From a bacterium (lineage in GTDB: Bacteria; 4484-113): a stretch of DNA of 64,000 bases. The stretch is taken from positions 8,017-72,016 of the forward strand of contig JAGGTK010000053.1 in assembly GCA_021163765.1 (NCBI GenBank), written 5' to 3'. The stretch's first letter is position 1; each line of letters begins with the position of its first letter. Under the pieces are notes generated by a model that did not search any database, was not told the origin of the DNA, and worked only from the letters and a program-made list of their open reading frames with translations. This document shows, piece after piece, positions 10,797-58,118 of the stretch. The translations under genes and the position numbers were made by a program.

Positions 10797-10884
10797 GCGA
10801 AAGGTTCTCTCACACCCGGATTTCCGCTACAATGGTGGGGGCGCAACGGGCGCTTAGGAGGAAGGTCTGGCACAACGGATTACT

Positions 10885-24890: not shown

Positions 24891-26285
24891 TCAGCCGATT
24901 TTGTGGATTGCGTGCCCGTTGACGTCCAAGGCCGCTTCGCCGATAGCTTCGGCAAGTGTTGGATGCGCACGCACAAGCTGCTGGTATTCAGCCAGCTTCA
25001 TGCGTGCGGCGAGTGCCACCTCAGCCTCGTGTATCAATTCGCCCGCCATCGGCCCGACCATATGCATACCGAGCATCTCATCGCTGTCTTCATCCGCTAC
25101 GACGATCACGAGGCCAACCGCCTGGTTCATAGCCATGGCTCTGCCATTCGCGCCAAAGAAGAACCTGCCTGTCTTCACCTTGTGACCTTTCTCTGCTGCC
25201 TGCTGCTCCGTCAATCCGATGCTGGCCACTTCCGGCGACGTGTAGACCACTGCGGGAACGAGCCGCGACTTGGGATGCGGGAAACCCGCAAGCACCTCAG
25301 CGGCCGCCACACCCTCGTGGCTTGCTTTATGCGCCAGCATCAATCCGCCTATTACATCTCCTATCGCCATCACGTTGGGCACGGCTGTGCGATACTCGTC
25401 GTTGACCTTTATAAAGCCTTTCCTGTCGGTTTCAACGCCTATTGCGCCAAGGTTTAGAGTATCTGTAACTGGTGCCCGCCCTACTGAAAGCAAAACGAGT
25501 TCGGCATCGATTGTGCCGGTGAACTTGCCCTCCACAGATAGCGCAACGCCCTCCCCGGAAATCTCCAGCGAGGTCACTTTGCTCTCCAGGTGAATCGCAA
25601 TCTTATCCTTTTTCAACTGCCGCACGAGCGTTTTCGCCAGCTCAACGTCCATCCCAGGCAGCGCCTGCGGCATAATCTCCACAAAGCAAACCTCCGTCCC
25701 CAGCCGTGCATAGACGCTGCCAAGCTCCAGGCCAATAGCGCCTGCTCCGATGACAGCCAGCGACTTGGGAATACCGGGCAGCGAAAGCGCCTCTGTGGAG
25801 GTAATCACGCGTTCCCCGTCCGGTTTGATGTGCGGGAGCGTTGCAGAACGGGAGCCTGTAGCGATTATGAAGTTATCCGCGATTATCTCGGATTTTTGCC
25901 CATCCGCATATGAGACTCCAAGTGCACGTTCATCCTTGAATTGCGCATCACCGAAATACAGGGCCACGCCGTTCTTCTTGAGAAGAACCTCGACACCGCG
26001 CGTAAGCTGATGCACGACCTTCTCTTTGCGTGACTGCATCGCTTGCCAATCGTGGGTCACACCCGTGGCATTCACTCCCCGCAAGGCCCCGTGCTTCACA
26101 ACTTCGTAATAGAGATGCGTGTCTTCAAGCAAGCACTTGCTGGGGATGCATCCCACATTTAGACACACACCACCCCAGTACCGGCGCTCGATAATAGCCA
26201 CACTGAGACCAAGTTGGGCAGCGCGGATTGCCGCGACATACCCACCGGGACCGGCGCCGATGACCGCTACATCGTATCGTTCCAT
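24891..26285 (-). CDS. lpdA: dihydrolipoyl dehydrogenase
   Basis: FAD-binding VIGAGPGGY, redox-active disulfide GGVCLNVGCIPSK, C-terminal dimerisation domain. Confidence 0.9.
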   Translation of the reverse strand: MERYDVAVIGAGPGGYVAAIRAAQLGLSVAIIERRYWGGVCLNVGCIPSKCLLEDTHLYYEVVKHGALRGVNATGVTHDWQAMQSRKEKVVHQLTRGVEVLLKKNGVALYFGDAQFKDERALGVSYADGQKSEIIADNFIIATGSRSATLPHIKPDGERVITSTEALSLPGIPKSLAVIGAGAIGLELGSVYARLGTEVCFVEIMPQALPGMDVELAKTLVRQLKKDKIAIHLESKVTSLEISGEGVALSVEGKFTGTIDAELVLLSVGRAPVTDTLNLGAIGVETDRKGFIKVNDEYRTAVPNVMAIGDVIGGLMLAHKASHEGVAAAEVLAGFPHPKSRLVPAVVYTSPEVASIGLTEQQAAEKGHKVKTGRFFFGANGRAMAMNQAVGLVIVVADEDSDEMLGMHMVGPMAGELIHEAEVALAARMKLAEYQQLVRAHPTLAEAIGEAALDVNGHAIHKIG

Positions 26286-31736: not shown

Positions 31737-31765
31737 TTGAAAGCTCTAAACAGGTATGGTATGCT
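31737..31765 (+). promoter_or_regulatory. candidate sigma70-type promoter (TTGAAA -35, 17-nt spacer, TATGCT -10) upstream of OFOR-2/Hdr gene string
   Basis: hexamers at 31737-31742 and 31760-31765 in the divergent intergenic region. Confidence 0.35.
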
Positions 31766-31836: not shown

Positions 31837-32133
31837 GTGGCTAACGCCGTGAAATATTGGCGAAAACCTTTGGACTTTGATGAGCTCACGATCCCCCACG
31901 GTATCGTGCATATCATCGTTGACCGCTGCAAAGGCTGCGGTTTCTGCGTGGAGTACTGCCCCAAAGGCGTGCTAGAAATGTCGGAGGAGTTTAACGCTAA
32001 GGGCTACCATCCGCCCAAAGTGGTCAAAGAAGGCGAGTGCGTGAACTGCAACCTGTGCGAGATGATATGCCCTGAGTTTGCGATATTCAGCGCCGACGCC
32101 TCCGATAATGGATCGGGCACGCATTCTAAGTAA
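31837..32133 (+). CDS. 2-oxoacid:ferredoxin oxidoreductase delta subunit (second copy)
   Basis: CKGCGFCVEYCP and CVNCNLCEMICP motifs; GTG start. Confidence 0.78.
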   Translation: MANAVKYWRKPLDFDELTIPHGIVHIIVDRCKGCGFCVEYCPKGVLEMSEEFNAKGYHPPKVVKEGECVNCNLCEMICPEFAIFSADASDNGSGTHSK

Positions 32134-32172
32134 TTTTTCTCCTTACAATGGTGAAGTAAAGGAGGACGACCA

Positions 32173-33330
32173 GTGAAAACAGACCCTTCAGGGGTGCTGA
32201 CTGGCCAACATTATCTTGATGGCGACCATGCCTGCGGAGAGGGCGCTATGGCCGCTGGCTGCAGATTCGTTGCCGGCTACCCCATCACTCCTTCAACAGA
32301 AGTCGTAGAGCGCATCTCGCGCAGATTCCCCATGATGGGAGGCACGTTCATCCAGATGGAGGATGAGATGGCCAGCATGGCGGCAATCATTGGCGCATCG
32401 TGGACTGGAACTAAATCAATGACCGTTACCAGTGGCCCCGGATTCTCCCTGATGATGGAGAATATCGGCCTCGCCGCGATGATGGAAACACCATGCGTCA
32501 TTGTGAACGTGCAACGTGGCGGGCCGTCCACGGGGCTACCAACAAATGTAGGCCAAGCGGATATGATGCAGGCGCGATGGGGTTCGCACGGTGACTACGA
32601 AATCATCGCTTTGAGCCCTCAGTCACCACAGGAGGCTTTTGACGTCATGATTGACGCCTTCAATCTCTCGGAGATTTACCGCGTGCCGGTAATGGTCATG
32701 ACGGACGAATGCGTAGGGCATATGACCGAAAAGGTCGTAATCCCCAAGGCTGAAGACATAGAAATAGTGCCACGCAAGCTTACTGATAAGCCGCCAGGCG
32801 AATTCTGGCCTTACGTTGCTGACAGGAACATGATACCGGAATTCGCGCGCGCAGGAGATGGTTACAGGTTCCATAGCACCGGCCTGACGCACAACGAGCG
32901 TGGATATCCGGTAATGAGCGCGGAGTGCCAGCAGGAATGCGTAACCCGGCTGGTAGACAAAATCCGCCTTAACGCTGAAGACATAGTCCGTTTCGAGGAA
33001 GAGGATATTGACGGCGCTGACGTTGTCCTCGTGACTTACGGTATCACCGCGCGTGTTGCGCGACGCGGCATCGATATCGCCAGGAATAAGGGCGTCAAGG
33101 TTGGCGTCATCAGGCTCATTGTTGTATGGCCGTTCCCCGAACGTCACATTCGCGAACTTGCACCCAAGATCAAGGCATTCGTGGTGCCTGAAATCAACTA
33201 CGGACAGATTGTGCTGGAAGTTGAACGCTGTGCGGCCGGGCAGACTCTTACCGTCCTTGTCCCCCATATGGGGGGCACGGTACATGACCCAGAAGACATC
33301 GCAAACGCTATTTTGGAGGCTGCCAAATGA
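32173..33330 (+). CDS. 2-oxoacid:ferredoxin oxidoreductase alpha subunit (second copy)
   Basis: paralogous to 2362..3465 (GYPITPSTEV, GASWTGTKSMT). Confidence 0.88.
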   Translation: MKTDPSGVLTGQHYLDGDHACGEGAMAAGCRFVAGYPITPSTEVVERISRRFPMMGGTFIQMEDEMASMAAIIGASWTGTKSMTVTSGPGFSLMMENIGLAAMMETPCVIVNVQRGGPSTGLPTNVGQADMMQARWGSHGDYEIIALSPQSPQEAFDVMIDAFNLSEIYRVPVMVMTDECVGHMTEKVVIPKAEDIEIVPRKLTDKPPGEFWPYVADRNMIPEFARAGDGYRFHSTGLTHNERGYPVMSAECQQECVTRLVDKIRLNAEDIVRFEEEDIDGADVVLVTYGITARVARRGIDIARNKGVKVGVIRLIVVWPFPERHIRELAPKIKAFVVPEINYGQIVLEVERCAAGQTLTVLVPHMGGTVHDPEDIANAILEAAK

Positions 33331-34307
33331 GCAAGGTCGCGGAGCAAATACCTACAGAAGAAATGGAACACCCAGTAGCGCCGTACTTGCGCATGGATCG
33401 CATCCCGCATATCTGGTGCCCCACCTGCGGCATCGGAACGGTTGTCAGATGCTACGCTGACGCGCTTGAGCATTCCAAAATCGACCTGGACAAGGTGGCT
33501 ATTGTTTCGGGCATTGGGTGCACAGGACGTGTTGCGGGATATATGAGGCTTGATGCCTTTCACACCACCCACGGTCGTGCTATACCGTTTGCAACCGGCC
33601 TGAAGCTGGGCCGGCCTGAGTTGTTGGTTACTGTTTTCTCCGGCGACGGAGACCTGGTTGGCATCGGTGGTAATCACTTCATCCACGCTGCTCGTCGTAA
33701 TCTGGACATACTCGTTATCCTTGTAAACAACTTCATTTATGGAATGACCGGCGGCCAGAACGCTCCAACAACCCCGACGACTGCCAGAACATCTACCATG
33801 CCTTTTGGCAATTTCGAAAGGCCATTCAACCTGCCTCACCTGGCGGAGAGCTGTGGCGCTACATACGTGGCACGCTGGACTAGCCTGCATATTCGCAGGC
33901 TGACCAAGTCGTTCAGAGAGGCGATTAGCCGCAAGGGCTTCCGCTTCGTTGAGGTTATTGCTCCTTGCGCCACTCTGTATGCCCGCCTGAACAAGCTGGG
34001 GACCGGCTTCAACCTGATGCGGTTCTATCACGACAATGCGGTCATTGACCACGGAGCCGATACTCGCGACCTCGACATCAGCTTCCAGGACAGGATTATT
34101 TGTGGGAAGTTCGTGGACAAAGAGCGTCCGACATATAGTGAAATGATGCACGAGCACTATAGAAATGCCCTCGGCGACAAATTCGTGCCTTTACCTGAGG
34201 AAGGTGGAATGATACGCGATACTGGGGAAAAACCAGATTCCAAGGGCAAGAAGCCGGCTAAAAGCCAAAAGCGCAAGGCTTCGGCATCTAAATCCAGTAG
34301 AAAATAA
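33327..34307 (+). CDS. 2-oxoacid:ferredoxin oxidoreductase beta subunit (second copy) with Lys-rich C-terminal tail
   Basis: CPTCGIG, GIGCTGR, TPP-binding GDGD; stop overlaps next start (TAATG). Confidence 0.88.
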
Positions 34308-35539
34308 TGGAAGCGGCGCCAAATAAAAGAGCCCTCGTGATCGGCGGTGGCATCGCAGGCATTCAGGCGGCCTTGGACCTAGCCAACGCTCGCATTCCAG
34401 TAACACTGGTGGAGAAGTCCCCTACCCTGGGTGGGCGAATGGCCCAGCTCGACAAGACGTTCCCCACCATGGATTGCAGCATTTGAATCCTCGGCCCAAG
34501 AATGCTGGATGCCGGTCGGCATCCCCTGATAGATGTGATCTCCAACGCCGAGGTTATCGGTTGCGAAGGCAAGCCAGGTGACTTCAGCGTCCGTGTGCGT
34601 AAAAACAAGCGGTACGTACGGGAAGACCTCTGCGTCGCCTGTGGATTATGCACCGATGCCTGTCCGGTCATCGCGGGCAACGAGTTCGATGTAGGACTGA
34701 AAGCCCGCAAGGCAATCTACCGCCCGTTCCCGCAGTCCGTACCTGCGGCATACGTAATAGACCCTGAGTTCTGCATTAACCTTCTGGGACACCTCAGCGA
34801 GAAGCAAATTCGCAGGTTGGAGAAAATCCAGAAGGTCAAACAGCGCAAGAATCTGGACTACAGCTCCAACATCCTTCCCTGTGGGCACTGTACTGAAGCC
34901 TGCGAAGTCAATGCTATCGACTTTGATATGCAGATAGAGGAAAAGGACCTGAATGTCGGGGCGATATTGGTCGCTGTGGGATTTCAGGAATTCGATGCCC
35001 GCAAGCTGGGCAACTACGGCTACGGCCGCTTCCCTAATGTGGTCACCAGCCTTGAATTAGAGCGGATGCTGAACGCCTCCGGAGTGACCCAGGGCCATGT
35101 CGTGCGGCCGTCCGATATGAAGACCCCAAAGCGGTTAGTGTTTATCCAGTGTGTGGGCGCCCGCGGCGAAGGCGGGCGACCGTATTGCAGCCGCTTTTGC
35201 TGTATGAACGCTGTAAAAGATTCTATGCTGGTGCGGCAGCACGATCCGGAAGTTGAGGATGTCACCATCCTCTATACCGACCTCCGCGCTTTCGGCAAAG
35301 GATTCGACGACTTCGTGCAGCGGTCACGTGACGAAAAGAGCGCCACTTACGTACGAGGACGCCCCGCAAAGGTGGATATCGTTCCTGAGAATGACACGCT
35401 GGAAGTGTTCGTTGAGGACACGCTGGGGCATGAGCAGAAACGCATCCCCGCAGACCTGGTCGTGCTTTCGGTTGCTGCCGCGCCAAACGACGGTGCGGCA
35501 GATCTCTTTGATATCTTAGGGATTAACAGGGTGGAGTAG
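34307..35539 (+). CDS. HdrA-like flavoprotein module 1 (FAD domain + inserted 2x[4Fe-4S] ferredoxin), probable selenoprotein (UGA 34484-34486); ends at in-frame TAG 35537-35539
   Basis: [17 protein letters not shown] motif; [15 protein letters not shown] aligns with conserved DCSMCIL of HdrA; [13 protein letters not shown] and [12 protein letters not shown]; reading frame continues into next ORF. Confidence 0.75.
34507..34524 (+). promoter_or_regulatory. bacterial SECIS-like hairpin GGATGCC-GGTC-GGCATCC starting 20 nt after the UGA codon
   Basis: perfect 7-bp stem with GGUC apical loop (same loop as E. coli fdhF SECIS). Confidence 0.65.
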
Positions 35540-35542
35540 GGT

Positions 35543-37459
35543 TTGGGCCCCGAAGGAATTGCCGAGGCCCCCGCGGGGGAGAGCACCCGCGACGGTATCT
35601 TCGTGTGTGGCAGCGCGGTCGGCCCCCAGATAATTCCTGATTGTGTCGCGCAAGCATCGGCGGTCGCAGCCAGAGCACAACTGTTTTTAACCGGTCATCG
35701 AGTTGAGAAGCACGAGGAGCCCGTTGAGCTCCTGGACGTCACCGGTAAGCCGCGGATAGGAATCCTCGTCTGCCATTGCGGCATTAACATCGCGGGCGTA
35801 TTAGACATTGACGACCTCGTGCAGTACGCAACCGCTTTGCCGGATGTGGTGGCGGCTGCTGGCAGCACATTTGCCTGCTCTACAACAGGGCAGGACGAGC
35901 TGGTAGAGCTGATACGCGAACATAATCTGAATCGCCTTGTCATCGCCGCCTGCACCCCGCGCACTCACGAGCCTATATTCCGCGAAACCTGCACCCACAT
36001 TGGCTTCAACCCATACCTTATCGAGATGGTGAATATCCGTGACCAGTGCTCATGGGTGCATACCGGACAACCCGTCGAGGCGCAGGAAAAGGCACGTACG
36101 CTTATAAGGATGGGTGTTGCCCGGGCCCGGCAACTGGAGCCGCTGTTCGAAGGCGAAGTCCCGATGATGCACTCGGCTCTCGTAATTGGCGGTGGAATCG
36201 CCGGTATCCAGGCTGCAACAGACCTGGCAGTGCAGGGGTTCCCCGTTACGCTCGTTGAAAAGGAAGGGCAACTCGGAGGTCGCCTTGCGAAGCCACACCT
36301 GAAATACCTGTATCCCAATATGCGGCCGGCGACTGAGGTACTGGAAGCAAAACTCAAGCTACTTGAGGAAAGCGGCGCCAGAGTCCTGCTTAACACTGAT
36401 GTTGAGAGCATTACCGGATATGTGGGCAACTTCGAGGCTAATCTGACAGGGGAAACTGAAGAGCTCCTCCAGGTTGGCGCCATTATTTTAGCTGTCGGGG
36501 CGGATCTCTACGATCCTGAGGAAGAATATGGCTATTCGAAGTTTCCCAACGTAATCACAAGCCAAGAGCTGGAAACGATGCTGGTGGAGGACGACAAGAA
36601 CGTCGAGATTGCCGGCAGCCGTCCCAGGAGCGCGTCCTTTGTGCTGTGCGTTGGGTCGCGGGATCCGGAGCATTTCCCCGGCTGTTCGCGCTACTGCTGC
36701 CCTACCGCGATAAAGCAAGCTATCCTGCTGCGACGCATGGGGATGGATATAACCATCTTCTACCGCGATATCCGCACGATTTCGACCGGTGCGGAGGAAA
36801 TGTACCGCGAGGCCAGAGGTTTGGGAGTTCTGTTCATCCGGATCCCTGAAGGCGACAAAGTCCAGGTAAGCGGGACAGACCACGCTGAATCGGTGCGATG
36901 CTTCGACGACCTTCTCGGCCGACACCTCGAAGTGCCCACTGACCTGGTCGTGTTAAGCGTGGGCATGCAGCCCAAGCAACCTGAAACATCAAAGTTCCAT
37001 GACATCCTGAAGGTTAGCGTCGGGCTTGACGGCTTCTTCATGGAGCTGCACCCGGAGCTCGGCCCGGTGGAAACCCCCGTGGAGGGCGTGCTTCTTGCGG
37101 GAACGGCTCAGGGGCCGAAAGATATTGTGGATACCGTCGCCCAAGCTTCCGCTGCCGCTGCGAAGGCCTCTATATTCCTGGCGCATGACACCGTTAGCCT
37201 CAATCCAGCGGTATCTGAGGTGATTGAGGAAAAATGCCGGGGCTGCGGCACCTGCGCGGAAATCTGCGAATTCCATGCACCCGCACTCGTCGAGATCGAG
37301 CCTGGCACCTTCGTCGCGCGTATCAACGCCAGTCTTTGCAAGGGTTGCGGCACGTGCACCAGTTGGTGCCCCTCCGGCGCGATTGTCTCCAAGCATTTCA
37401 CCGACCGGCAGGTCCACGCGATGATTGATGCTCTGTTCACAACTGAAACATCGAAATGA
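35543..37459 (+). CDS. HdrA-like flavoprotein module 2, preceded in-frame by the C-terminal FAD-domain strands of module 1
   Basis: first approx. 50 aa (DGIFVCGSAVGPQIIPDCVAQASAVAA) complete module-1 FAD domain; then HdrA N-domain GILVCHCGINIAG, FAD motif [15 protein letters not shown]-terminal CRGCGTCAEICE/CKGCGTCTSWCP; TTG start with GGTGGAG RBS if TAG is a real stop. Confidence 0.7.
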   Translation: MGPEGIAEAPAGESTRDGIFVCGSAVGPQIIPDCVAQASAVAARAQLFLTGHRVEKHEEPVELLDVTGKPRIGILVCHCGINIAGVLDIDDLVQYATALPDVVAAAGSTFACSTTGQDELVELIREHNLNRLVIAACTPRTHEPIFRETCTHIGFNPYLIEMVNIRDQCSWVHTGQPVEAQEKARTLIRMGVARARQLEPLFEGEVPMMHSALVIGGGIAGIQAATDLAVQGFPVTLVEKEGQLGGRLAKPHLKYLYPNMRPATEVLEAKLKLLEESGARVLLNTDVESITGYVGNFEANLTGETEELLQVGAIILAVGADLYDPEEEYGYSKFPNVITSQELETMLVEDDKNVEIAGSRPRSASFVLCVGSRDPEHFPGCSRYCCPTAIKQAILLRRMGMDITIFYRDIRTISTGAEEMYREARGLGVLFIRIPEGDKVQVSGTDHAESVRCFDDLLGRHLEVPTDLVVLSVGMQPKQPETSKFHDILKVSVGLDGFFMELHPELGPVETPVEGVLLAGTAQGPKDIVDTVAQASAAAAKASIFLAHDTVSLNPAVSEVIEEKCRGCGTCAEICEFHAPALVEIEPGTFVARINASLCKGCGTCTSWCPSGAIVSKHFTDRQVHAMIDALFTTETSK

Positions 37460-37920
37460 CTCCGACCAAAACCAAACGCAAGGCAAAGTCCGGTTCCACA
37501 AAGTGGAACCCCAACATCGTGGTTTTTGCGTGCAACTGGTGTTCATACGCGGGTGCGGATACCGCCGGAGTTTCGCGAATCCAGCATGAACCGCACTTCA
37601 GGATGATCCGCGTAATGTGCTCCGGTCGCATCCAGCCAGGCTTCGTTCTCAAGGCTTTTGAGAGGGGAGCGGACGGCGTTCTGGTCTCTGGCTGCCACAT
37701 CGGCGACTGCCACTACATCTTTGGAAACGAGCGCGCACTGGAGCAGTTCGAGAAGACTAAGAATATGGTCAGGCTCCTCGGCCTGGAGGAAGGGCGGCTT
37801 CGTTTGGAATGGATAAGCGCCGCTGAGGGCGCACGATTTGCCGAGGTTATCAACGATTTCACTGCCCAGGTGCGGAAACTGGGGCCGAGCCCACTCAACA
37901 CCGGCAATGGGGAACGCTAA
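37456..37920 (+). CDS. methyl-viologen-reducing hydrogenase delta subunit homolog (MvhD/FlpD)
   Basis: VVFACNWCSYAGAD and VSGCHIGDCHY motifs; start overlaps upstream stop (ATGA). Confidence 0.85.
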   Translation: MTPTKTKRKAKSGSTKWNPNIVVFACNWCSYAGADTAGVSRIQHEPHFRMIRVMCSGRIQPGFVLKAFERGADGVLVSGCHIGDCHYIFGNERALEQFEKTKNMVRLLGLEEGRLRLEWISAAEGARFAEVINDFTAQVRKLGPSPLNTGNGER

Positions 37921-37926
37921 AGGGAT

Positions 37927-39087
37927 ATGAAAACGACTTCAACCCCTGAAATTGCGGAAATCGCCGATAAGGCCAGAGCGTGGGCCTGCTACGACTGCGG
38001 GAAATGCACGGCGACCTGCCCCATTGCCCGGGTTGGCGGCGCTCTCAGCCCCCGGCGGCAGGTGCTGGCAGCCAATCTCGGTCACCGCGAGGACATTATT
38101 ACCAATAATGCCCTTTTCGCCTGTCTTACCTGCGGGTTGTGCAGCTCACGTTGCCCTGCCGGAGTGGTTTACTGCGAGCTGGTTCTAAACCTGCGCCAGC
38201 TCGCATTCCACGACGGCGTTGAGCCTGAGTGCCCGCACGGCGGCGCACTTCAATCAATGATGCGAATGATGGCCAAGGGTAAAACAAAGCAAGACCGCCT
38301 AAGCTGGCTGACCAAAGATTTGAAGGTTCAGCACAAGAAGGGAGATGTTTTCTACTGGACCGGTTGCACGATGTACTACGATGCGTTCTTCCCCGACTTC
38401 AATATCACGACTCTGGACGCTACACGGGCTGCCATTCGCGTACTGAACCGACTGGGCGTGACGCCGGTAGTTTCACCGGACGAGCGATGCTGCGGGCATG
38501 ACCTTCTGTGGAACGGTGACCGGGCGAATTTTGAGCTCCTCGCAAGGCATAACGTTAAACTCGTTGAATCCAGCGGCGCAAAAACGCTTGTCATCTCCTG
38601 TGCTGAGTGCCTGCGAACATGGAATATCGACTACCAGCCATTCTTTGAGACTAGCCCTCCAAAGATTATGCATATAACCGAGTTTATGCAAGAAAATCTG
38701 GATAATCTGAAGTTCAAAGCCAACAAGGAGCATACGGTCACTTATCAGGACCCCTGCCGGCTGGGCAGGCACCTAGGGATCTTCGATCCGCCGCGCGCTA
38801 TACTAGAAGCACTGCCTGATATCACCCTGGCGGAAATGCCCCGCTCCGGAAAAAACTCCATATGCTGCGCTGGGGGGACTTGGTCTAACTGCGACCGCTA
38901 CGCCAAGCACATCCAGGTAGACCGCCTGCGCGAGGCAAAGTCAACAGGTGCTGAGTTCCTTGTTACGTCCTGCCCTAAATGCCAGATACATTTCGCATGC
39001 GCTATGAAAGACCCGAATTTACACGAGGAGATTGAAATCCCGATGCGCGATATCGCCACGCTGGTTGCAGACGCGCTGGCGGATTGA
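37927..39087 (+). CDS. HdrD-like subunit (HdrC-type 4Fe-4S dicluster domain fused to HdrB-type double CCG domain)
   Basis: CYDCGKCTATCP and CLTCGLCSSRCP; CCG motifs ERCCGHD and SICCAGG. Confidence 0.82.
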   Translation: MKTTSTPEIAEIADKARAWACYDCGKCTATCPIARVGGALSPRRQVLAANLGHREDIITNNALFACLTCGLCSSRCPAGVVYCELVLNLRQLAFHDGVEPECPHGGALQSMMRMMAKGKTKQDRLSWLTKDLKVQHKKGDVFYWTGCTMYYDAFFPDFNITTLDATRAAIRVLNRLGVTPVVSPDERCCGHDLLWNGDRANFELLARHNVKLVESSGAKTLVISCAECLRTWNIDYQPFFETSPPKIMHITEFMQENLDNLKFKANKEHTVTYQDPCRLGRHLGIFDPPRAILEALPDITLAEMPRSGKNSICCAGGTWSNCDRYAKHIQVDRLREAKSTGAEFLVTSCPKCQIHFACAMKDPNLHEEIEIPMRDIATLVADALAD

Positions 39088-39131
39088 CCCAATAATGATG
39101 AATTTGATGGAACCTGTAGGGACTCTCTCAA

Positions 39132-41597
39132 ATGGGAGGAGAATTAATGGACAGTGACCCGAAAGGTGACGGACTGCGAGTAGGCGTCTTCGTATGTGAT
39201 TGCGGCCTTAACATCGCGGGGACGGTCGACACCCAGGCAGTGACAGATTACGCGGCAACTCTTCCAGACGTCGTGTGCGCCATCCGGAACCGCTACACCT
39301 GTGCTGATCCGGGGCAGAACGAAATCAAGAAAGCCATTGCCGAGCACCGCCTGAACCGAGTAGTTATCGCTTCCTGCACCCCGTTACAGCACGAGCCCAC
39401 ATTCCGGACCTGCGTCGCTGAGGCAGGCCTTAATCGTTACCTCATGGAAATGGCCAACCTGAGGGAACAATGCTCCTGGGTACATCCCAGCGACATGGAG
39501 GGCGCTACCAGAAAGGCGAAAGACCTGGTAGCAGGCGCAGTGGCACGGGCACGAAATCTGCAGCCGCATGACGACCTGTCGGTTCCTGTCACCAAGCGCG
39601 CGCTTGTCATCGGGGGAGGTATAGCCGGCATGGAAGCTGCGCTCGAGCTGGCCGACTCGGGGCATCAAGTGGTACTGGTTGAAAAGGAGGCATCCATCGG
39701 TGGGATTATGGCTCAACTGGACAAAACATACCCCACCATGGATTGCTCCATATGAATTCTCGGCCCTAAGGCCATAGATGTCGGTCGACATCCAAACATA
39801 GAACTCCTAACCTACAGCGAGGTAGTGAATGTATCGGGCTACATCGGTAACTTTACGGCGGAAATCCGCCGGAAGGCGCGCTATGTGGACCCGGAGGCAT
39901 GCACCGCATGTGCGGAGTGCGCCCAGGTGTGCCCGGTGGTGAAACCCGACGAGTATCAGATGGGGCTATCCTCCCGGAAAGCCATCTACATTCCCTACCC
40001 CCAGGCGGTGCCATCCTCCTACATCCTTAATATGGAAGATTGCCTGGGAACCAATCCCATCGCCTGTGGAAAGTGTGCCGAAGTATGCGAGCCGGACTGT
40101 ATCAATTATGATGACCGCGACATAATCGTCAAGCGTGATGTGGGTGCGGTAATCGTGGCAATCGGCGCTGACGTGTATGACCCCACCGAGATGGATGAAT
40201 ACGGCTACACGCGCTTCGACAATGTGATCACTTCCATGGAATTCGAGCGCCTAATATGCGCTGGTGGGCCGACGCTGGGCCACTTTGTGCGACCGAGTGA
40301 CCATGAGCGTCCGAAGCGCATCGGCTTCATACAATGTGTTGGATCCCGAAATCCTAGCATTGGGAGGCCCTACTGCTCCAATATCTGCTGCATGAACACC
40401 ATCAAGGACACTCTCCTGTTGGCTGACCATTACCCGGACGTAGAGTGCACCGTGTTTTACCAGGACATTAGAGCTTTCGGGAAGTCGTTTGAGGACATGT
40501 TCCAGCGCTCTAAGGAGGCTGGCACCCGTTATATCAGAGGAATACCGGGTGATATTGAAGAGGATACTGAAACCGGCAACCTCACCCTCATAGCAGAAAA
40601 CACCACTAGCGGCAAGATAGAGCGTCATGAGTTTGACATGGTTATCCTATCCGTTGGGGTCGGACCGCCCAAGGATCTTGCTAAAATCTCCAGTCTGCTA
40701 ACACTCTCCAAGACCTCGGATGGCTTCTTCATGGAGTCCCATCCGAAACTGAAGCCTGTTGATGCCCCCACGCGCGGAGTTTTCTTCTCTGGCTTTTGCG
40801 AATCCCCCAAAGACATCAAGGATTCTGTATGTCAGGCCGGTGCAGCTGCTTCACGCGCTGGCGCGCTGCTTAACGCGGGCCAGGTCCATATTGAGGCGAT
40901 TACCAGCGTGATTGACGCGGATGCCTGCAAGAAGTGCGGTGTATGTGCGAGCGTTTGCCCCTATGGCGCAATCACATGGAAGAAGGGCGAAGTGGCCGTT
41001 GTCATCGACGCCGCGTGCGCGGGCTGCGGAAACTGCGGCGCCGCCTGCAAATTCGACGCGATTACGATGCGCCACTTCACAGACGCGCAGTATATGGCTC
41101 AGATTCGCGCCATCCTGGCCGAAGACCCGCAGGACAAAGTCTTCGTGTTTGCGTGTAACTGGTGCTCATACAGCGGCGCGGATATGGCTGGCATTTCACG
41201 AATGCAATATCCGGCCTCCAATCGAATCGTAAGGACTATGTGCTCAGCGCGTGTCTCCGAGGATATGGTGCTTGAAGCGTTCCGTTGCGGCGCACCGGTG
41301 GTTCTCGTTTCCGGCTGCCATTACGCTGACTGCCACTATATCACTGCAAACAGGCAAACCGTTCAGCGCGTCCAGCGCCTGTGGAACAAGCTGGAGAAAG
41401 CCGGTGTCAGGCCGGAACGGCTGCAGCTCGAGTGGATTAGCGCCGCCGAGGGCCAGAAGTTCGCCAAGGTGATGGCCCAGATGGAGGAATTGCGAAAAAC
41501 GGTGACGGAGGAGGAAATCGAGTACACGATTGAGGCTCTAAAGCCAAAACCCAGGAAGCCTAAGAAGGAGAAGGAAGCTGCCGCAGTGGCCGGGTAG
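39132..41597 (+). CDS. HdrA-MvhD fusion flavoprotein, probable selenoprotein (in-frame UGA 39753-39755)
   Basis: single frame through 39132..39755 and 39825..41597; N-domain VFVCDCGLNIAG; [14 protein letters not shown]; YPTMDCSI-TGA-ILGP; inserted and C-terminal ferredoxin motifs; C-terminal MvhD domain (VFVFACNWCSYSGAD, VSGCHYADCHY). Confidence 0.78.
39777..39792 (+). promoter_or_regulatory. bacterial SECIS-like hairpin GATGTC-GGTC-GACATC starting 21 nt after the UGA codon
   Basis: perfect 6-bp stem with GGUC loop; same spacing and loop as the element at 34507. Confidence 0.65.
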
Positions 41598-41621
41598 CGG
41601 CTGACGGCCCGGAGGTCTCAT

Positions 41622-41798
41622 ATGGCAACAATGGAGAACTTCAAATGTATGTTGTGCGGTCACGAGTACCAGGAACTCGTTGAAGAAGGCGAGGACAAGG
41701 AACGCTCCTGTCCCAAGTGCCGTTCCAACAGCATTCGACATCTTAAGAAACGCGCCTCGCAGGGTGATTCCGATGACAAAGGCAAGAAAACCGAATAA
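41622..41798 (+). CDS. FmdB-family zinc-ribbon protein (58 aa), below the 60-aa ORF-track threshold
   Basis: MATMENFKCMLCGHEYQELVEEGEDKERSCPKCRS (CxxC-n17-CxxC); GGAGG RBS 6 nt upstream; overlaps hdrC start by 26 nt in another frame. Confidence 0.6.
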   Translation: MATMENFKCMLCGHEYQELVEEGEDKERSCPKCRSNSIRHLKKRASQGDSDDKGKKTE

Positions 41799-42294
41799 CG
41801 ACGATGTCGTAAAGGTAGACTTCGACTTCAGGCGCCAGCTCGCCAAGAAAGTCGAGGGCAACCTGGCCAGCTTTTGTTATCAGTGCGGGGCCTGCGTGGG
41901 CGATTGCCCTGCCGCAACCTACAGTGACGAGTTCAACCCCCGGGAGATAATGCTCAAAGTGTTATACGGACTTGGCGAGGAACTGCTGGTGGAGAACTCA
42001 GTATTGTGGCAGTGCACCAACTGCTACAACTGCGCAGAGCGATGCCCCCAGGACGTTAAGCCGGTCGAGGTCATCATCTCGCTGAAGAATATGCTCGCGG
42101 ACCTGAATATCTATCCCCCTACCGTGGAAAAGATCATCGGCACATTTGAGAAAACCGGCCGTACAACTCCCCTAAGCCCTGCGGTGGACCGGCAGCGCGA
42201 GCGGTTTGGGCTGCCACCGATGAAGCCTGTCCCCATGGACGAGATCAGCAAGCTTCTTGAGCCTGCATCCGATGAGGAGGATGATGCAGAGTGA
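41773..42294 (+). CDS. hdrC: heterodisulfide reductase subunit C-like (2x[4Fe-4S])
   Basis: CYQCGACVGDCP and CTNCYNCAERCP; likely start ATG 41773 (ORF open from 41680). Confidence 0.8.
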   Translation: MTKARKPNNDDVVKVDFDFRRQLAKKVEGNLASFCYQCGACVGDCPAATYSDEFNPREIMLKVLYGLGEELLVENSVLWQCTNCYNCAERCPQDVKPVEVIISLKNMLADLNIYPPTVEKIIGTFEKTGRTTPLSPAVDRQRERFGLPPMKPVPMDEISKLLEPASDEEDDAE

Positions 42295-43181
42295 AGCCCT
42301 TTGCATTTTTCCCCGGCTGCCTGATTCCTGTTCGCTATCCGGCGATGGAGTTCGCCATCCGCCAGACCTTGCCCAAGCTGGGCATCGAAATAGTTGACCT
42401 TGAAGGCGCGTCCTGCTGCCCTGACCCAATCTACTTCAAGTCCAAGGACAAGGTCGCGTGGCTCTCCGTTGCTGCGCGCAACCTTACGCTGGCCGAAGAT
42501 CTGGGCCTAGATGTGTTCACTAACTGCTCCGGTTGCACTGCAACGCTTTCGGAGGCTTACCACCTTCTGAAGAACGACGAACTCAGAGAAAAGGTCAACA
42601 GGCGACTTAAAAAGATTGGCCGCAAGTACAAGGGCACGAGCAGAGTCCGGCACGTTGCGACCCTTGTTCGTGATGAAGCAGGCTACGACGCGGTGCGTGA
42701 ATCGGTCGTGCGCCCGCTGGACGGTATGAAAATGGCCATTCACTACGGCTGCCACCTGCTGAAGCCGAGCAAGATTATGAACGTAGACGACCCCAACAAC
42801 CCTGAAGTCCTGGAAAAAATGGTAGAAGCTATTGGCGCCACTCCGGTGCGCCATCGCAACTGGTATCTCTGTTGCGGAAAGGCCTGCCAGCATGAGGCTA
42901 TTCCCCTGAATATGATGCATGCCCTGCTGGGCACGGTGAAGGACGTGGAAGCGGAAATCCTGTGCCTAATCTGTCCAACCTGCTTCAGCCAATTCGATCA
43001 CGGCCAGATGAAGGTCGCCAAGCACTTCAACGACGATTACCACATCCCGCCGGTATACTACTTCCAATTGCTAGCTTACGCACAGGGCATTCCCTATGAT
43101 AAGCTTGGGTTTGACCGCCAGCGGTTCAAGCCTGAAAGCCTGCAACGCTTTGCAACCTCATCGGCACAGGTGGAAAATTGA
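42291..43181 (+). CDS. hdrB: heterodisulfide reductase subunit B-like (two CCG domains)
   Basis: GASCCPDP and YLCCGKAC CCG motifs; GTG start overlapping hdrC stop (GTGA). Confidence 0.82.
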   Translation: MKPFAFFPGCLIPVRYPAMEFAIRQTLPKLGIEIVDLEGASCCPDPIYFKSKDKVAWLSVAARNLTLAEDLGLDVFTNCSGCTATLSEAYHLLKNDELREKVNRRLKKIGRKYKGTSRVRHVATLVRDEAGYDAVRESVVRPLDGMKMAIHYGCHLLKPSKIMNVDDPNNPEVLEKMVEAIGATPVRHRNWYLCCGKACQHEAIPLNMMHALLGTVKDVEAEILCLICPTCFSQFDHGQMKVAKHFNDDYHIPPVYYFQLLAYAQGIPYDKLGFDRQRFKPESLQRFATSSAQVEN

Positions 43182-43215
43182 TCAGTGATATCTGTCAATC
43201 CTGGAGAGTAACGAA

Positions 43216-43776
43216 ATGAGCACTACTGAACTTCGAGTCAGCGGCTTTGGCGGCCAGGGCGTGATTCTCTGCGCCTATATCATCGGCCGCGCTGCGGCGC
43301 TACATGACGGGAGACATGCCACGCTTACCCAGAGCTTTGGCCCTGAGGCCCGCGGCAGCGCGTGTAGCGCCCAGGTAATCCTGTCCGATGACCCTGTTCT
43401 ATATCCGTACGTGCAGCATCAGAATGCCCTTGTCTGCATGTCCCAAGAGGCTTATGACAAGTTCGAGCCGGAGACAGACACCGACGGCATCCTGCTTTAC
43501 GAGGAGGAGCTTGTCACGCCCCACGAACCGCGCGCCGACATGAAAGTGTACGGTATTCCAGCCACCCGAATCGCTGAGGAACTCGGGCGAATAATCGTGG
43601 TTAATATCGTGATGCTCGGCTTCTTTACAGCGACTACAGGTCTGCTCCCAATGGAGGCGGCCCGCAAAGCGGTTGAAGAATCTGTTCCTGAAGGCACCGA
43701 GAAACTCAACCTGGCCGCTTTCGACCGTGGCTATGAATACGGAATTAAGCTGGTTGAAGAAAAAGCAGCGAAGTGA
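43216..43776 (+). CDS. 2-oxoacid:ferredoxin oxidoreductase gamma subunit (second copy, separated from D-A-B by the Hdr module)
   Basis: VSGFGGQGVIL gamma-family motif, paralog of 4289..4852. Confidence 0.85.
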   Translation: MSTTELRVSGFGGQGVILCAYIIGRAAALHDGRHATLTQSFGPEARGSACSAQVILSDDPVLYPYVQHQNALVCMSQEAYDKFEPETDTDGILLYEEELVTPHEPRADMKVYGIPATRIAEELGRIIVVNIVMLGFFTATTGLLPMEAARKAVEESVPEGTEKLNLAAFDRGYEYGIKLVEEKAAK

Positions 43777-43846
43777 ACAAATCAGCTATCCGTTTTTATA
43801 GTTGACGCTGGCGGAATCCCTAAGCCTCTATGCTATTCTAGATTAC

Positions 43847-44692
43847 ATGCCACAGAAGGTTACCAGGCTGTCCGCTACGAAAATATCCACTTTCGAACAG
43901 TGTGCTAAATACTATGAGTTTCAGTATGTGCACCGGGCCAAAAGGTCGTTCACGCCCATCGAATGGGAAGTTGGCAGCATTGTCCACGATATTATCGCCA
44001 GGCTGTTCAGGCAAATCAGGGATAAGCAACGTGGCACAATCCCCAAGCTCGGCAATGCGGAATGGTACCGCCCGCTTCTGGCCGACGCCACCTCGAATCT
44101 GCGGAACCAGGTAGACGAGGGAATTGTGCGCATTGTTAGGCCCGATGAAAGGATGCAATCATACGAGGAGCAGATGGACAACGCGCTAGGCACGTTCACT
44201 GCCAAGGCCCTGCCCTTGCTTCATGACCACAAGATTGTGGGCGTGGAAGCAGACCTAGGGCGGTTTAATCTGGATGGGATTCAGATAGATGGACGACTTG
44301 ACCTTATAACTCAATCTGGCGGCAACCTTTACGTGCACGACTGGAAGACCGGCGGTCGCCGCGACGAGGATGCGCGCCAGGCTAAAATATACTACTTCGC
44401 ATCCAAGGACAAGTACCGCCAACCAGCTACGACATTCACGCTCTACTACCTGGCAGAAGCAGGTGATATCGTCACATCTTATACCTTCAGCCAGGAACAG
44501 CGGGCGCTGCTTAGCGCCGAGATTGCTGACATCGCTGCGCGGATAAACGCTCTTGAAACATATCAGGCCCGAGTTTCGGTCTTATGCCACTGGTGCCCCT
44601 ACGGGCCCCAATGCGACGAAGGAAACGCGTATATGTCCGCCCATCCTCCACCAGTGAAGAAAGACCAGATAGACCTGGGCCTGGTAACGTGA
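43847..44692 (+). CDS. Cas4-like / RecB-family PD-(D/E)xK nuclease with Fe-S cysteine cluster (no adjacent cas genes)
   Basis: N-terminal Cys (FEQCAKYY), DGRLDLI..LYVHDWKTG core, C-terminal CHWCPYGPQC (CX2CX5C); ATG 43847 preferred over 43802. Confidence 0.65.
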   Translation: MPQKVTRLSATKISTFEQCAKYYEFQYVHRAKRSFTPIEWEVGSIVHDIIARLFRQIRDKQRGTIPKLGNAEWYRPLLADATSNLRNQVDEGIVRIVRPDERMQSYEEQMDNALGTFTAKALPLLHDHKIVGVEADLGRFNLDGIQIDGRLDLITQSGGNLYVHDWKTGGRRDEDARQAKIYYFASKDKYRQPATTFTLYYLAEAGDIVTSYTFSQEQRALLSAEIADIAARINALETYQARVSVLCHWCPYGPQCDEGNAYMSAHPPPVKKDQIDLGLVT

Positions 44693-46894: not shown

Positions 46895-48469
46895 TTAGTT
46901 CTCCTCCACCGCTGCCATGCAAACTCGATTGCGCCCGCTGCGCTTGGCCTTATAGAGCGCCTTGTCCGCCATCTCCACGAGGCTGTTTCTGTTAACAGCC
47001 ATCTGCGGGAAAAGCGCAACACCCACACTGACAGTCACCGGCAACTTCAAGCCGTTGTATTCGAAATCGTGCTCCTCAACGAGTGACCTGATCTTCTCGC
47101 CAACCACCAGCGTCACGTCATAGTCAGCCTGCGGGATGATGATTGCAAACTCCTCCCCGCCGTACCGTGAAATGATTTCAGTCGCGCGCAAGCCTTCATT
47201 TAGCACCTTGCAGAGCTCCACGAGCACATAGTCGCCGACCTGATGCCCGTACGAGTCGTTTATCTGTTTAAAATGGTCGATATCGACCATAGCCAGCCCG
47301 ACCGAATGGCTGTAGCGCGACGCCCTCGTGAGCTCTATCTCCATGAATGTCTCGAACTGGCGCCGGTTATTTACCCCTGTGAGAGGGTCAGTTGTGGCCA
47401 TTTCCTTCAGCCGGTTCGTAAGAATAACATTCCCCACTATCTGGCGCAGCGTTCCTCCGAAAGTGGTCAGAAACCTGAAGTCCTCCTCTGTGAAGTCTGG
47501 CGGGTCGGTACGGTTCACAAATATAAGACCGTAATTCTCATCGTCAATATGGAGGTCGTAAGTCATATACGAGTGAGCCGCGCAGATCTTGGTCAGCGGG
47601 TTATCGAGGTCGAAATCAAGGATACGCTGGACCTTGGGGGTCGGTGGGTTAGCGTGGAAGCGCGGATAGTAATCCTCCAGCATCTCGTTTATCTCGCGCT
47701 CCTTGTGCTGGACACCCCAGTAAAAGCCTTGCTTTATGACGCTTTCAAAAGCGCTCAGCACCTGTGGGTCCAGGCTGGGATGCATTTTTTCTCCAAATAT
47801 CTCAAGAATATGTGCGGGTTCCTGCCTTGTACGCTCCTGCCCGCTAAGCTTGCTGTAGATCACGCGGAAGAACTGCGAGTGGAAAAAAGCCACACCGTCA
47901 TCGGCTTGCAGAATCGTCATTAGCTTCGCCAGAAGCCTCTCCGGAATCTGTGCATCCCGCACGAGATTCGATTCGCTCATCTGCGACACTTGTCCCAGCA
48001 GTGAGAGTTCCTCAACCTGCCTGAAGAGAACGTTCTCCTGAAGACGCATGTAATCCTGAAAGAGCTTGACCCGCACTTCGTCACTCGTGAACTTCAGGTA
48101 AGTCTCCTCTACTAAGTCACGAGACCTCTCCGGGCTGGGGTTCGCGGTTACGTATTCCACAAGCGTAATGAAGGTGTGCTCCCCGAGAAGCGACACTTCA
48201 TTTATTCGTAGCTGCAAATGCAGGTTCCTTGTAGCGAGCCGTATTAGCGTTAGCAGGAAATAGCCAAGGTCTCCTTCTCCCAGTGATTTAACCGCGGATG
48301 AGACCAATTGGCGAAGCACTCTGATTGATTCCTCTTTCTCCAAAAACTCCAGCAACTCACCGCAACGCTGGCAGATTTGTTCGGTTATTTCCCCCTCATG
48401 GGTCTTGAGATGAAGCGCTACCTCCAGGCGTTCATCGCGTCCAAATGTAGCTATTTCAACAGCAGTCAT
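46895..48469 (-). CDS. GGDEF-domain diguanylate cyclase with N-terminal sensory region
   Basis: DPLTGVNNRRQFE and RYGGEEFAII (GGEEF) motifs. Confidence 0.82.
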   Translation of the reverse strand: MTAVEIATFGRDERLEVALHLKTHEGEITEQICQRCGELLEFLEKEESIRVLRQLVSSAVKSLGEGDLGYFLLTLIRLATRNLHLQLRINEVSLLGEHTFITLVEYVTANPSPERSRDLVEETYLKFTSDEVRVKLFQDYMRLQENVLFRQVEELSLLGQVSQMSESNLVRDAQIPERLLAKLMTILQADDGVAFFHSQFFRVIYSKLSGQERTRQEPAHILEIFGEKMHPSLDPQVLSAFESVIKQGFYWGVQHKEREINEMLEDYYPRFHANPPTPKVQRILDFDLDNPLTKICAAHSYMTYDLHIDDENYGLIFVNRTDPPDFTEEDFRFLTTFGGTLRQIVGNVILTNRLKEMATTDPLTGVNNRRQFETFMEIELTRASRYSHSVGLAMVDIDHFKQINDSYGHQVGDYVLVELCKVLNEGLRATEIISRYGGEEFAIIIPQADYDVTLVVGEKIRSLVEEHDFEYNGLKLPVTVSVGVALFPQMAVNRNSLVEMADKALYKAKRSGRNRVCMAAVEEN

Positions 48470-55978: not shown

Positions 55979-56161
55979 CTACTCGTCTTTGAGCACAGGC
56001 GCGTCAACCGGGCAAACCTCGGCGCACTCGCCGCACTCTGTGCAGAGGTCTTCGTCAATCTCCGCCTTGGTAGCGCCCTCAGGCACAGAGATTGCCTCAA
56101 CCGGGCAAACGTCAATACACTCTTTGTGTAACGCGCACTTGTCCGTAATCACATATGTCAT
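55979..56161 (-). CDS. small 2x[4Fe-4S] ferredoxin
   Basis: 60 aa with two cluster-binding motifs (CIDVCP, CTECGECAEVCP). Confidence 0.8.
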   Translation of the reverse strand: MTYVITDKCALHKECIDVCPVEAISVPEGATKAEIDEDLCTECGECAEVCPVDAPVLKDE

Positions 56162-58027: not shown

Positions 58028-58118
58028 GTAAAAGCCCTCCCCTCTGAATTGATGCTCATCATTCTAAGTGAATGACGCCTTGCCGGTCAAGCGTTCAGCT
58101 GGAGAATTAGGCGATATA

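Follow-up and report, generated by a model that had tools for sequence, protein, structure and literature searches.

What is the gene for the gamma subunit of a 2-oxoacid:ferredoxin oxidoreductase (OFOR) doing at the far end of a string of genes resembling those of heterodisulfide reductase (Hdr), away from the genes for its delta, alpha and beta partners? The question is raised by a locus in a 64,000-nucleotide stretch of DNA (hereafter the window, or 64-kb window; positions 8,017 to 72,016 of contig JAGGTK010000053.1, assembly GCA_021163765.1) from a bacterium of the GTDB lineage 4484-113. On its + strand, at 31870-43776, the open reading frame (ORF) listing together with Pfam and NCBIfam searches identifies korD, korA, korB, an HdrA-HdrA tandem, MvhD, an HdrD-like protein, an HdrA-MvhD fusion, a zinc-ribbon ORF, HdrC, HdrB and, last, korC (window proteins, MCD6282773-87). 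An earlier note, made from the sequence alone, had listed these genes, their common orientation and their domains, all of which our searches bear out, and had seen in them an OFOR wrapped around an Hdr module. On balance, and with modest confidence, we read the operon as a Kor-Hdr system in which a 2-oxoglutarate-type OFOR and two selenocysteine (Sec)-containing Hdr units would exchange electrons via flavin, the terminal position of the gamma gene having come about by a cassette swap.

The association of kor with hdr extends well beyond this genome. Homologues of the HdrD-like protein number thousands at about 65-70% identity, and a scan of one genome per species (GTDB species representatives) with this protein returned 586 confirmed matches; the best 80 of the 586, on 80 different genome contigs, are the loci analyzed here (designated L001 and so on). 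The window proteins were mapped onto all of them, and about 60 were evaluable for the upstream flank. With the exception of L080, all of the evaluable loci have kor directly upstream of hdr on the same strand. The loci belong to Planctomycetota/Phycisphaerae, Acidobacteriota, Gemmatimonadota, Zixibacteria, KSB1, WOR-3, Eisenbacteria, Deltaproteobacteria and Cytophagia metagenome-assembled genomes (MAGs); the pairing spans more than 10 phyla and holds even where the identity of the HdrD-like protein falls to 45%. The usual order is korD-A-B-C, hdrA1A2, mvhD, hdrD-like, hdrA3-mvhD, zinc ribbon, hdrC, hdrB. Because the same-strand order recurs in all but one evaluable locus and in so many phyla, the survey strongly supports the view, already taken in the earlier note, that kor and hdr are a functional unit inherited together, and by its gene content the operon in the window is assignable to a widespread Kor-Hdr cluster of uncultured anaerobic bacteria. 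A routine separation of korDAB from korC by unrelated genes had been named as a finding that would speak against such a link, but the survey revealed no unrelated genes between them. That the two sets of genes are neighbors by chance, with no functional connection, has a negligible probability and is effectively refuted by this conservation, which moreover outlasts the exchange of modules described below. All-against-all clustering of the flank ORFs revealed no hydrogenase, formate dehydrogenase or other dehydrogenase as a conserved neighbor; the only recurrent genes were those for a MarR-family regulator (25 loci) and an ORF with a GNAT acetyltransferase domain (17 loci, 11 on the same strand and 6 on the opposite one). 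The MarR-family gene lies directly 5' of korD, on the same strand, in its 25 loci (e.g., 2099-3163 in L021), and is missing from the window.

Around this core, the redox modules vary. A GltD/NfnB-like NAD(P)H module is found in 14 loci, about one sixth of the related loci: in L006 (5196-9473), L008, L025, L031 and L074 it sits within an additional copy of HdrA1A2 (1425 aa, HdrL-like), whereas in the KSB1-type loci L061, L064 (5413-7752), L066, L069 and L075 it is fused to MvhD and substitutes for HdrA1A2. A citrate synthase gene is found inside the cluster of L064 (8422-9726); citrate synthase was rejected as a general member of the cluster, as it is inside the cluster in this locus only.

The gamma gene follows hdrB only in the window and in L003, L004 and L005, and in these lineages the subunits of the OFOR differ in their affinities. 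KorA (81%), KorB and KorD of the window share 76-81% identity with the common type of the cluster, but KorC only 58-59%; in the comparison with L088 and L089 the relation is reversed, with 79% identity for KorC and 68%, 63% and 63% for KorA, KorB and KorD, respectively. Neighbor-joining trees (22 taxa, or 20 for KorB; 50 bootstraps) agree with these figures: the gamma-last KorA falls within the common-type clade, with L088 outside (100% bootstrap), whereas the gamma-last KorC pairs with L088 (100% bootstrap). L088 and L089 correspond to the locus described here on the chromosome of a related organism, with flanks syntenic to those of the window, formed by genes for a 345-aa protein of unknown function, a PD-(D/E)XK nuclease, a 307-aa protein of unknown function, an HD-HD protein and a GGDEF protein. 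Between these flanks, L088 (7722-16706) and also L089 carry another cassette, with korDABC, hdrC, an SdhE/HdrB-like gene, hdrA, mvhD and genes for an FeS protein and a 551-aa FrdA/TfrA-like flavoprotein, a composition that points to a fumarate reductase or succinate dehydrogenase linked to Hdr beside the same OFOR. Because the tree placements and the identities of KorA and KorC conflict, the split OFOR is best read as chimeric, and the gamma-last order as the scar of a cassette replacement rather than as functional design; korDAB and the Hdr module of the window would be of the type common in Phycisphaerae and Acidobacteriota, and korC would be of the resident type, shared with the L088 lineage. 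The wrapping of the OFOR around the Hdr genes, which had been taken as a sign of a physical complex, then carries no special meaning, the general order being korDABC-hdr and the gamma-last order being confined to four lineages with a chimeric korC. All four lineages have kept KorC intact, at 81-91% identity, an argument in favor of its being functional.

Other close relatives of this KorC also adjoin HdrA-type genes, in L086 and L087. The L087 cluster (434-11202) is composed of hdrC, hdrB, hdrA, mvhD, a gene for an FeS protein, a frameshifted TfrA-like gene, korDABC and a gene for a class I fumarase; the fumarase gene is followed by genes for another OFOR, of two subunits, and for a dicarboxylate symporter. 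As judged from these gene arrangements, alternative redox cassettes, namely Hdr/HdrD, Hdr/FrdA-like and GltD-MvhD, are shown to have been exchanged beside the same OFOR.

All four subunits of this OFOR are encoded, beta, gamma and delta being placed at the domain or family level only. korD (31870..32133) codes for the delta subunit, with two [4Fe-4S] sites (Pfam Fer4/Fer4_7); the longest ORF begins at GTG 31837, and the start adopted here follows the gene call in L001. The NCBIfam models OGOR_delta and OorD are at the top for KorD, both under the cut-off (OGOR, 2-oxoglutarate:ferredoxin oxidoreductase). The alpha subunit, KorA (32173..33330; POR_N and PFOR_II), is of the KOR/OGOR type: it scores 565.8 with NCBIfam NF006412 (cut-off 411), and its best matches in the Protein Data Bank (PDB) are 1YD7 (2-keto acid:ferredoxin oxidoreductase alpha) and 8YS5 (2-oxoglutarate synthase alpha), with 6N2N also matched. 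For the beta subunit, which binds thiamine pyrophosphate (KorB, 33327..34307; TPP_enzyme_C), the top model is that of the 2-oxoglutarate ferredoxin oxidoreductase beta subunit, with 232 bits (cut-off 364), and for the gamma subunit (KorC, 43216..43776; PF01558) it is NF006323, with 205.9 bits (cut-off 235). Taken together, the best matches, the names given by the Joint Genome Institute (JGI) and the tricarboxylic acid (TCA) cycle genes of related loci point to a four-subunit OFOR of the 2-oxoglutarate type. The window also encodes a second, canonical and contiguous OFOR at 2098-4852, as the earlier note had stated; its alpha subunit is of the VorB type (487 with NF005507, cut-off 399). The alpha and gamma subunits of the split enzyme are only 39% and 30% identical to those of the VorB-type copy, in keeping with the suggestion that the split OFOR is of a different, specialized type. 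A stand-alone HdrD-like protein (Fer4_8 and two CCG domains, 438-449 aa) is encoded at 7357-8706, beside a LysR regulator and about 2.5 kb from the VorB-type OFOR.

The spacing of the genes is that of an operon. Reading the junctions from the sequence upheld the short gaps and start/stop overlaps claimed before: no intergenic gap exceeds 44 nt, the non-overlapping junctions spanning 6 to 44 nt; korB and hdrA meet in a TAATG (34305-34309); 4-nt overlaps occur at 33327, 37456 and 42291; and the zinc-ribbon ORF overlaps hdrC by 26 nt. A single promoter-like site (31737-31765) is found inside the 243-nt divergent region 5' of korD. Terminator-like sites were not enriched over shuffled sequence (14 observed, 14.0 expected). 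From the spacing and the conserved gene order we infer that 31870-43776 is co-transcribed as one operon of about 12 kb. A gene for a PD-(D/E)XK nuclease (43802-44692) starts 25 nt 3' of korC on the same strand and may be co-transcribed; because such a gene also follows the cassette in both L003 and L088, we assign it to the flank and not to the cluster.

Downstream of korB, the first Hdr gene codes for two HdrA units. HdrA unit 1 (34307..35539, by translation and a match to PDB 5ODC_A) ends at a TAG codon (35537-35539); the following ORF (35543..37459, by Pfam and PDB matches) holds the rest of the C-terminal FAD domain of unit 1, to about 35716, and then unit 2. The two units are complementary. 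Unit 1 has Sec at position 197, an inserted ferredoxin domain and a CSRFCC motif, and has neither the N-terminal nor the C-terminal Fe-S domain; unit 2 has an N-terminal CHCG Fe-S domain, an FAD site, a CSRYCC motif and a C-terminal pair of [4Fe-4S] sites, and has neither Cys197 nor the insert. Complementary loss in tandem or fused HdrA proteins of ANME archaea and Moorella has been read as an intramolecular heterodimer (PMC9012536). With Cys197 and the N-terminal domain divided between its units in just this way, although the fusion is broken by the TAG in the window, HdrA1-A2 is predicted to be a single-chain asymmetric pseudo-dimer that matches the described heterodimer pattern. It is followed by a free-standing MvhD, a [2Fe-2S] adaptor (37456..37920; FlpD, E = 4.7e-52), and by the HdrD-like protein (37927..39087; Pfam Fer4_8 and two CCG domains). 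The latter is the equivalent of an HdrC-HdrB fusion, with a 2x[4Fe-4S] domain and two intact CCG motifs whose cysteines are invariant in 20 homologues; its best NCBIfam match is TfrB, at 152 bits under a cut-off of 385.

The HdrA-MvhD fusion (39132..41597) is of the HdrA2 type. With U replaced by C in the query, it passes the HdrA2 model NF040770 (1136.6 against a cut-off of 1100) over profile positions 1-776 of 777; it matches the solved structure of Methanothermococcus HdrA (5ODC_A) along its full length, with E = 4e-234 over 646 aa, and its MvhD part matches 5ODC_D. Behind it, and preceded by a GGAGG, lies the ATG of the FmdB-type zinc-ribbon ORF (41622..41798, 58 aa; TIGR02605 26.8 bits under a cut-off of 31.3, and a weak Zn_ribbon_8 match), which tblastn found between hdrA-mvhD and hdrC in most loci. 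HdrC (41773..42294; Fer4_8) and HdrB (42291..43181; two CCG domains) complete the set. Neither reaches the equivalog cut-off for the CoB-CoM (coenzyme B-coenzyme M) enzymes (TIGR03290, 97.8 bits under 160, for HdrC; TIGR03288, 295.6 under 345, for HdrB), although their architecture and CCG motifs are present; HdrB matches the methanogen HdrB of PDB 8RVU_b with 253 bits. On this domain content, the cluster is predicted to encode two complete HdrA/MvhD/CCG units: one would consist of the HdrA1-A2 pseudo-dimer, MvhD and the HdrD-like protein, and the other of the Sec-HdrA-MvhD, the zinc-ribbon protein, HdrC and HdrB. Hydrogenase domains (MvhA, MvhG) were found neither in the cluster or the 64-kb window nor among the conserved neighbors, and the window encodes neither an Flx-like NADH module nor a TfrA/FrdA flavoprotein; genes for CoM or CoB were not seen in the 64 kb. 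Elsewhere in the window are genes for dihydrolipoyl dehydrogenase (24891-26285, - strand; TIGR01350, 534 bits), isocitrate dehydrogenase (56274-57404, - strand) and lipoate-protein ligase (58068-58799, + strand). Lipoyl proteins are substrates of sulfur-oxidizing Hdr-like systems.

Both Cys197-type HdrA genes are interrupted by a TGA codon. In unit 1, for which translation starts at an ATG (34307) that overlaps the korB stop codon, the in-frame TGA is at 34484-34486; in the HdrA-MvhD gene it is at 39753-39755, in the context TYPTMDCSI-TGA-ILGP. Both codons occupy the position of Cys197 of methanogen HdrA (numbered as in PMC9012536). Across the approximately 80 homologous loci, TGA is present in 141 of the 143 instances of the motif DCS[IV]-x-ILxP, the other two having Cys (TGT). 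Each TGA is followed by a hairpin resembling a selenocysteine insertion sequence (SECIS), identified by folding, on the + strand: GGAUGCCGGUCGGCAUCC at 34507..34524, 21 nt past the UGA at 34484, and AGAUGUCGGUCGACAUCC at 39776..39793, past the UGA at 39753, in which the outermost A-C pair is open and six of the seven consensus pairs form. The consensus, GGAUGYCGGUCGRCAUCC, has a 7-bp stem and a GGUC loop and lies 21 nt downstream of the UGA. Over 132 distinct sequences 94.6% of the cells are paired, a value matched by none of 500 shuffles, and pair 29-36 shows compensatory variation (CG 90, UA 22, UG 19). Because the TGA is conserved at the Cys197 position and is accompanied by a covarying hairpin, both Cys197-type HdrA proteins are predicted to be selenoproteins. 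Genes of the Sec machinery are absent from the 64-kb window, where a tRNA scan was also negative. The first reading of the locus had rightly recognized these genes as hdrA but overlooked their Sec codons, and the first HdrA begins at ATG 34307 and not at 34502. The gene calls in L001, L002 and L083 likewise split the Sec-HdrA genes at the UGA, into an N-terminal ORF of 55-70 aa or about 200 aa and a large C-terminal ORF; public annotation thus cuts these selenoprotein genes and masks their true architecture.

The TAG codon is of another kind. The earlier note had described two adjacent HdrA ORFs; both are present, but in relatives they form one fused gene, and in the window they share one frame and are divided by the TAG at 35537-35539 alone. 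Two metagenome contigs (JGI 3300016457 and European Nucleotide Archive, ENA, ERZ23499370) match the window across 21 kb with 25-27 mismatches, of which 21 fall within 35525-35578 and four within 47141-47146. In both contigs the HdrA gene is uninterrupted, with TAC at the position of the TAG; gene calling gives one ORF of 985 aa past the Sec TGA, and with Sec read through the product counted from ATG 34307 has 1050 residues. The aberrant patch (35525..35578, + strand) is thus 54 nt long, with 21 substitutions and no indel relative to the near-identical contigs; where homologues keep GI[DE]TD.YGF[IV]AR.D.A[IV]SAVE, the window has GINRVE*GLGPEGIAEAPAGE. An exact look-up of the truncated 345-aa ORF of the window gave no record. 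From these comparisons the TAG appears to be a local lesion or an assembly artifact; for the patch as a whole, strain variation, an error in the consensus or the assembly, and a lesion are all conceivable origins. The TAC in the near-identical contigs and the scrambling of the 18-codon motif rule out pyrrolysine or programmed read-through at TAG 35537, and a diversity-generating retroelement was rejected as the source of the patch, as neither version has a template copy anywhere else in the 64 kb (k >= 12). The smaller patch at 47141-47146, which mismatches these contigs at 4 of its 6 nt, lies within a GGDEF gene on the - strand.

How, then, might the OFOR and the Hdr units work together? We infer a physical complex, a direction of electron flow and bifurcation from the following considerations. 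As no other dehydrogenase partner is encoded, the OFOR would be the only one open to the MvhD/HdrA modules, so that electrons would pass between KorD and the HdrA flavins. The Fe-S chain of KorD would trade low-potential electrons (about -500 mV) with these flavins, either directly, by way of MvhD or the ferredoxin domains of HdrA, or with a ferredoxin as carrier, and the CCG subunits would reduce, or in reverse oxidize, a thiol/disulfide couple. Electrons would in this way be exchanged via flavin between 2-oxoglutarate/succinyl-CoA and a thiol/disulfide couple, with the HdrA flavin as the bifurcating or confurcating node, which in about one sixth of the related loci the GltD-like module would also join to NAD(P)H. 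Three couples, 2-oxoglutarate/succinyl-CoA at about -500 mV, NAD(P)H at about -320 mV in the variants and a higher-potential thiol/disulfide or fumarate couple, would fit reversible bifurcation or confurcation. HdrA2B2C2 is known to have ferredoxin:heterodisulfide activity (PMC5296606). Several points weigh against this Kor-Hdr reading. The beta, gamma and delta subunits of the OFOR are below the NCBIfam equivalog cut-offs, the specificity of the enzyme being deduced from family similarity. In the window, the cluster lacks a module for NAD(P)H, hydrogenase or formate dehydrogenase that could act as the mid-potential partner, and the simple reduction of a disulfide from a -500 mV donor would be wasteful; a further partner is probably encoded elsewhere. 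CoM/CoB is unlikely as the disulfide in bacteria, as is established and has been argued before (PMC3903129). Besides the TAG, which breaks the fused HdrA, the copy in the window has a conserved motif scrambled over 18 codons, so that it may be defective or the assembly wrong. Finally, the homologous loci all come from MAGs or metagenomes.

A serious rival, though one we consider doubtful, reverses the flow: bifurcation at Hdr would feed low-potential electrons straight to the OFOR, acting as a 2-oxoglutarate synthase in the reductive carboxylation of succinyl-CoA. The donor would be NAD(P)H in the GltD-like variants and, here, one encoded elsewhere that docks on MvhD, and the exergonic branch would be the reduction of a disulfide, possibly regenerated by a thiol:fumarate reductase. 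By analogy, the Hdr-Fmd/Fwd supercomplexes of methanogens, in which HdrA feeds a CO2-fixing enzyme (PDB 7BKB, 8RVU and 9SFI families matched), would offer a model, and a proposal of this kind has been published for korABCD-tfrAB-flxABCD-hdrABC (PMC6315080). The GltD-like NAD(P)H modules that 14 of the loci carry and the FrdA/TfrA-like flavoproteins and fumarase beside kor-hdr in L087 and L088 speak for it as well; so does the TfrB match of the HdrD-like protein, but this is far under the cut-off and reflects generic HdrD architecture. The window, however, has neither a donor module nor a TfrA/FrdA gene, ATP-citrate lyase or another marker of autotrophy was not seen, the host lineages are commonly taken as heterotrophs, and the related Zixibacteria RBG-1 was described as running its TCA cycle oxidatively, using OGOR and lacking citrate lyase (PMC3903129). 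Because of the missing donor module and autotrophy marker and the precedent of the Zixibacteria, we favor the oxidative direction for this apparently heterotrophic genome, with 2-oxoglutarate oxidation feeding Hdr.

The oxidative flow need not involve a complex at all. If Kor reduced free ferredoxin and HdrA2B2C2-like units re-oxidized it, the genes would be merely co-regulated, with neither a Kor-Hdr complex nor bifurcation; OFORs normally work with soluble ferredoxins, the HdrA2B2C2 of Methanosarcina acetivorans uses free ferredoxin (PMC5296606), and a gene for a small (60-aa) 2x[4Fe-4S] ferredoxin is found elsewhere in the window (about 55979-56161, - strand). We hold such loose coupling to be possible but somewhat unlikely, given the tight and deeply conserved synteny, the translationally coupled junctions (TAATG at korB/hdrA), the presence of two MvhD adaptor domains with no other donor module to dock and the lack of a ferredoxin gene within the cluster. 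It is quite improbable, in turn, that the cluster is simply decaying here, with the TAG and the 18 scrambled codons making the fused HdrA a pseudogene and the system non-functional. The TAG does sit within a motif conserved in about 80 loci, but two independent metagenome contigs from the same population, identical over 21 kb bar the two patches, carry the intact gene, the remaining genes of the operon are all intact, and clustered substitutions without indels suit an assembly or consensus artifact or a rare strain variant at least equally well.

Within the favored Kor-Hdr reading, the relatives provide a TCA-cycle context, with citrate synthase in L064, fumarase and a TfrA-like flavoprotein in L087 and an FrdA/TfrA-like flavoprotein in L088. 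A more speculative possibility, to which we attach a low probability, is that Kor-Hdr clusters are bifurcating or confurcating complexes that link the redox extremes of the cycle, the 2-oxoglutarate/succinyl-CoA step at about -500 mV and a high-potential step. The latter may be fumarate/succinate, via the FrdA/TfrA-like flavoprotein, in the L087 and L088 cassettes, whereas in the type of the window it may be a thiol/disulfide relay at the CCG sites of HdrB and the HdrD-like protein, with NAD(P)H at mid-potential in the variants with the GltD module. The two steps are 1:1 in the cycle. If this were true, such a complex would spare anaerobes the reverse electron transport otherwise needed to oxidize succinate, and, running backward, it would use fumarate reduction to power 2-oxoglutarate synthase.

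The earlier note had not recognized the arrangement as a described system. This stands for the OFOR/double-Hdr operon itself, which we did not find described, but associations of Hdr with OGOR have precedents: our literature search for an OFOR-Hdr operon returned only a cluster of tubeworm symbionts and a remark on Zixibacteria, a description in subscription journals being possible. In the tubeworm symbionts and in Thioflavicoccus mobilis, korABCD and tfrAB are interspersed with flxABCD-hdrABC, and a complex feeding OGOR has been proposed (Rubin-Blum et al., 2019; PMC6315080); in Zixibacteria RBG-1, the co-location of Mvh/Hdr with OGOR and pyruvate:ferredoxin oxidoreductase (POR) was noted in passing (PMC3903129). 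The kor-tfr-flx-hdr cluster shares with the operon in the window a four-subunit OGOR interspersed with Hdr genes and a TCA-cycle context, but there the NADH-dehydrogenase module FlxABCD and TfrAB accompany only one HdrABC, in the setting of a reductive TCA cycle with ATP-citrate lyase in Gammaproteobacteria. The window, from an unclassified sediment-type bacterium, has neither Flx nor TfrA, and has instead three HdrA units (two of them with Sec), two MvhD, an HdrD-like and a zinc-ribbon protein; it does not belong to the flx-hdr or kor-tfr-flx-hdr clusters, TfrA-like genes being found only in the related L087 and L088. What HdrABC/MvhD homologues do in non-methanogenic bacteria, and with which substrates, is largely obscure, and metabolic reconstructions of uncultured phyla are repeatedly incomplete as to how anaerobes supply or dispose of the -500 mV electrons of OFORs. 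With its approximately 80 related loci, the operon is a compact, self-contained candidate system, joining an OFOR to Hdr with no other dehydrogenase, in which electron transfer and bifurcation are open to heterologous testing.

The separate parts of the operon have closer counterparts. The HdrA2B2C2 enzyme of M. acetivorans (Yan et al., 2017; PMC5296606) also has HdrA fused to MvhD, plus HdrB and HdrC, and takes electrons from reduced ferredoxin, that is, from the product of OFOR; unlike the proteins of the window it acts on CoM-S-S-CoB, involves F420H2, is not encoded with an OFOR and has Cys in the place of Sec. The HdrA, HdrB, HdrC and MvhD architecture is that of the methanogen MvhAGD-HdrABC and Fdh/Mvh-Hdr-Fmd/Fwd complexes (PDB 5ODC, 7BKB, 8RVU, 9SFI), which are a precedent for the direct wiring of a CO2-converting low-potential enzyme to HdrA; the cluster in the window, however, is bacterial, has no hydrogenase or formate dehydrogenase and has an OFOR as the partner and not formylmethanofuran dehydrogenase. 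The complementary loss of Cys197 and the N-terminal domain is shared with the fused or tandem HdrA of ANME archaea and with the MetFV-HdrABC-MvhD of Moorella (Chadwick et al., 2022; PMC9012536), although here the order is reversed, with the Cys197 (Sec) unit first, and the partner enzymes differ. Sec in HdrA, and an hdrA gene followed by mvhD, are known from the HdrL/Sec-Hdr of Desulfobacterium autotrophicum (Strittmatter et al., 2009; PMC2702500), whose HdrA/GltD-like fusion with an NAD(P)H site resembles the variants L006, L008, L025, L031 and L074 but not the window, which has no GltD-like insert; the terms oxoglutarate and oxoacid are absent from the main text of that paper, which mentions no linkage to OFOR. 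By sequence comparison, the components thus all appear to be of known kinds, namely an OFOR, an HdrA2-type fusion, an asymmetric fused HdrA, Sec-HdrA and HdrD, and what seems to be new is their combination in an OFOR and double-Hdr operon and its wide distribution.

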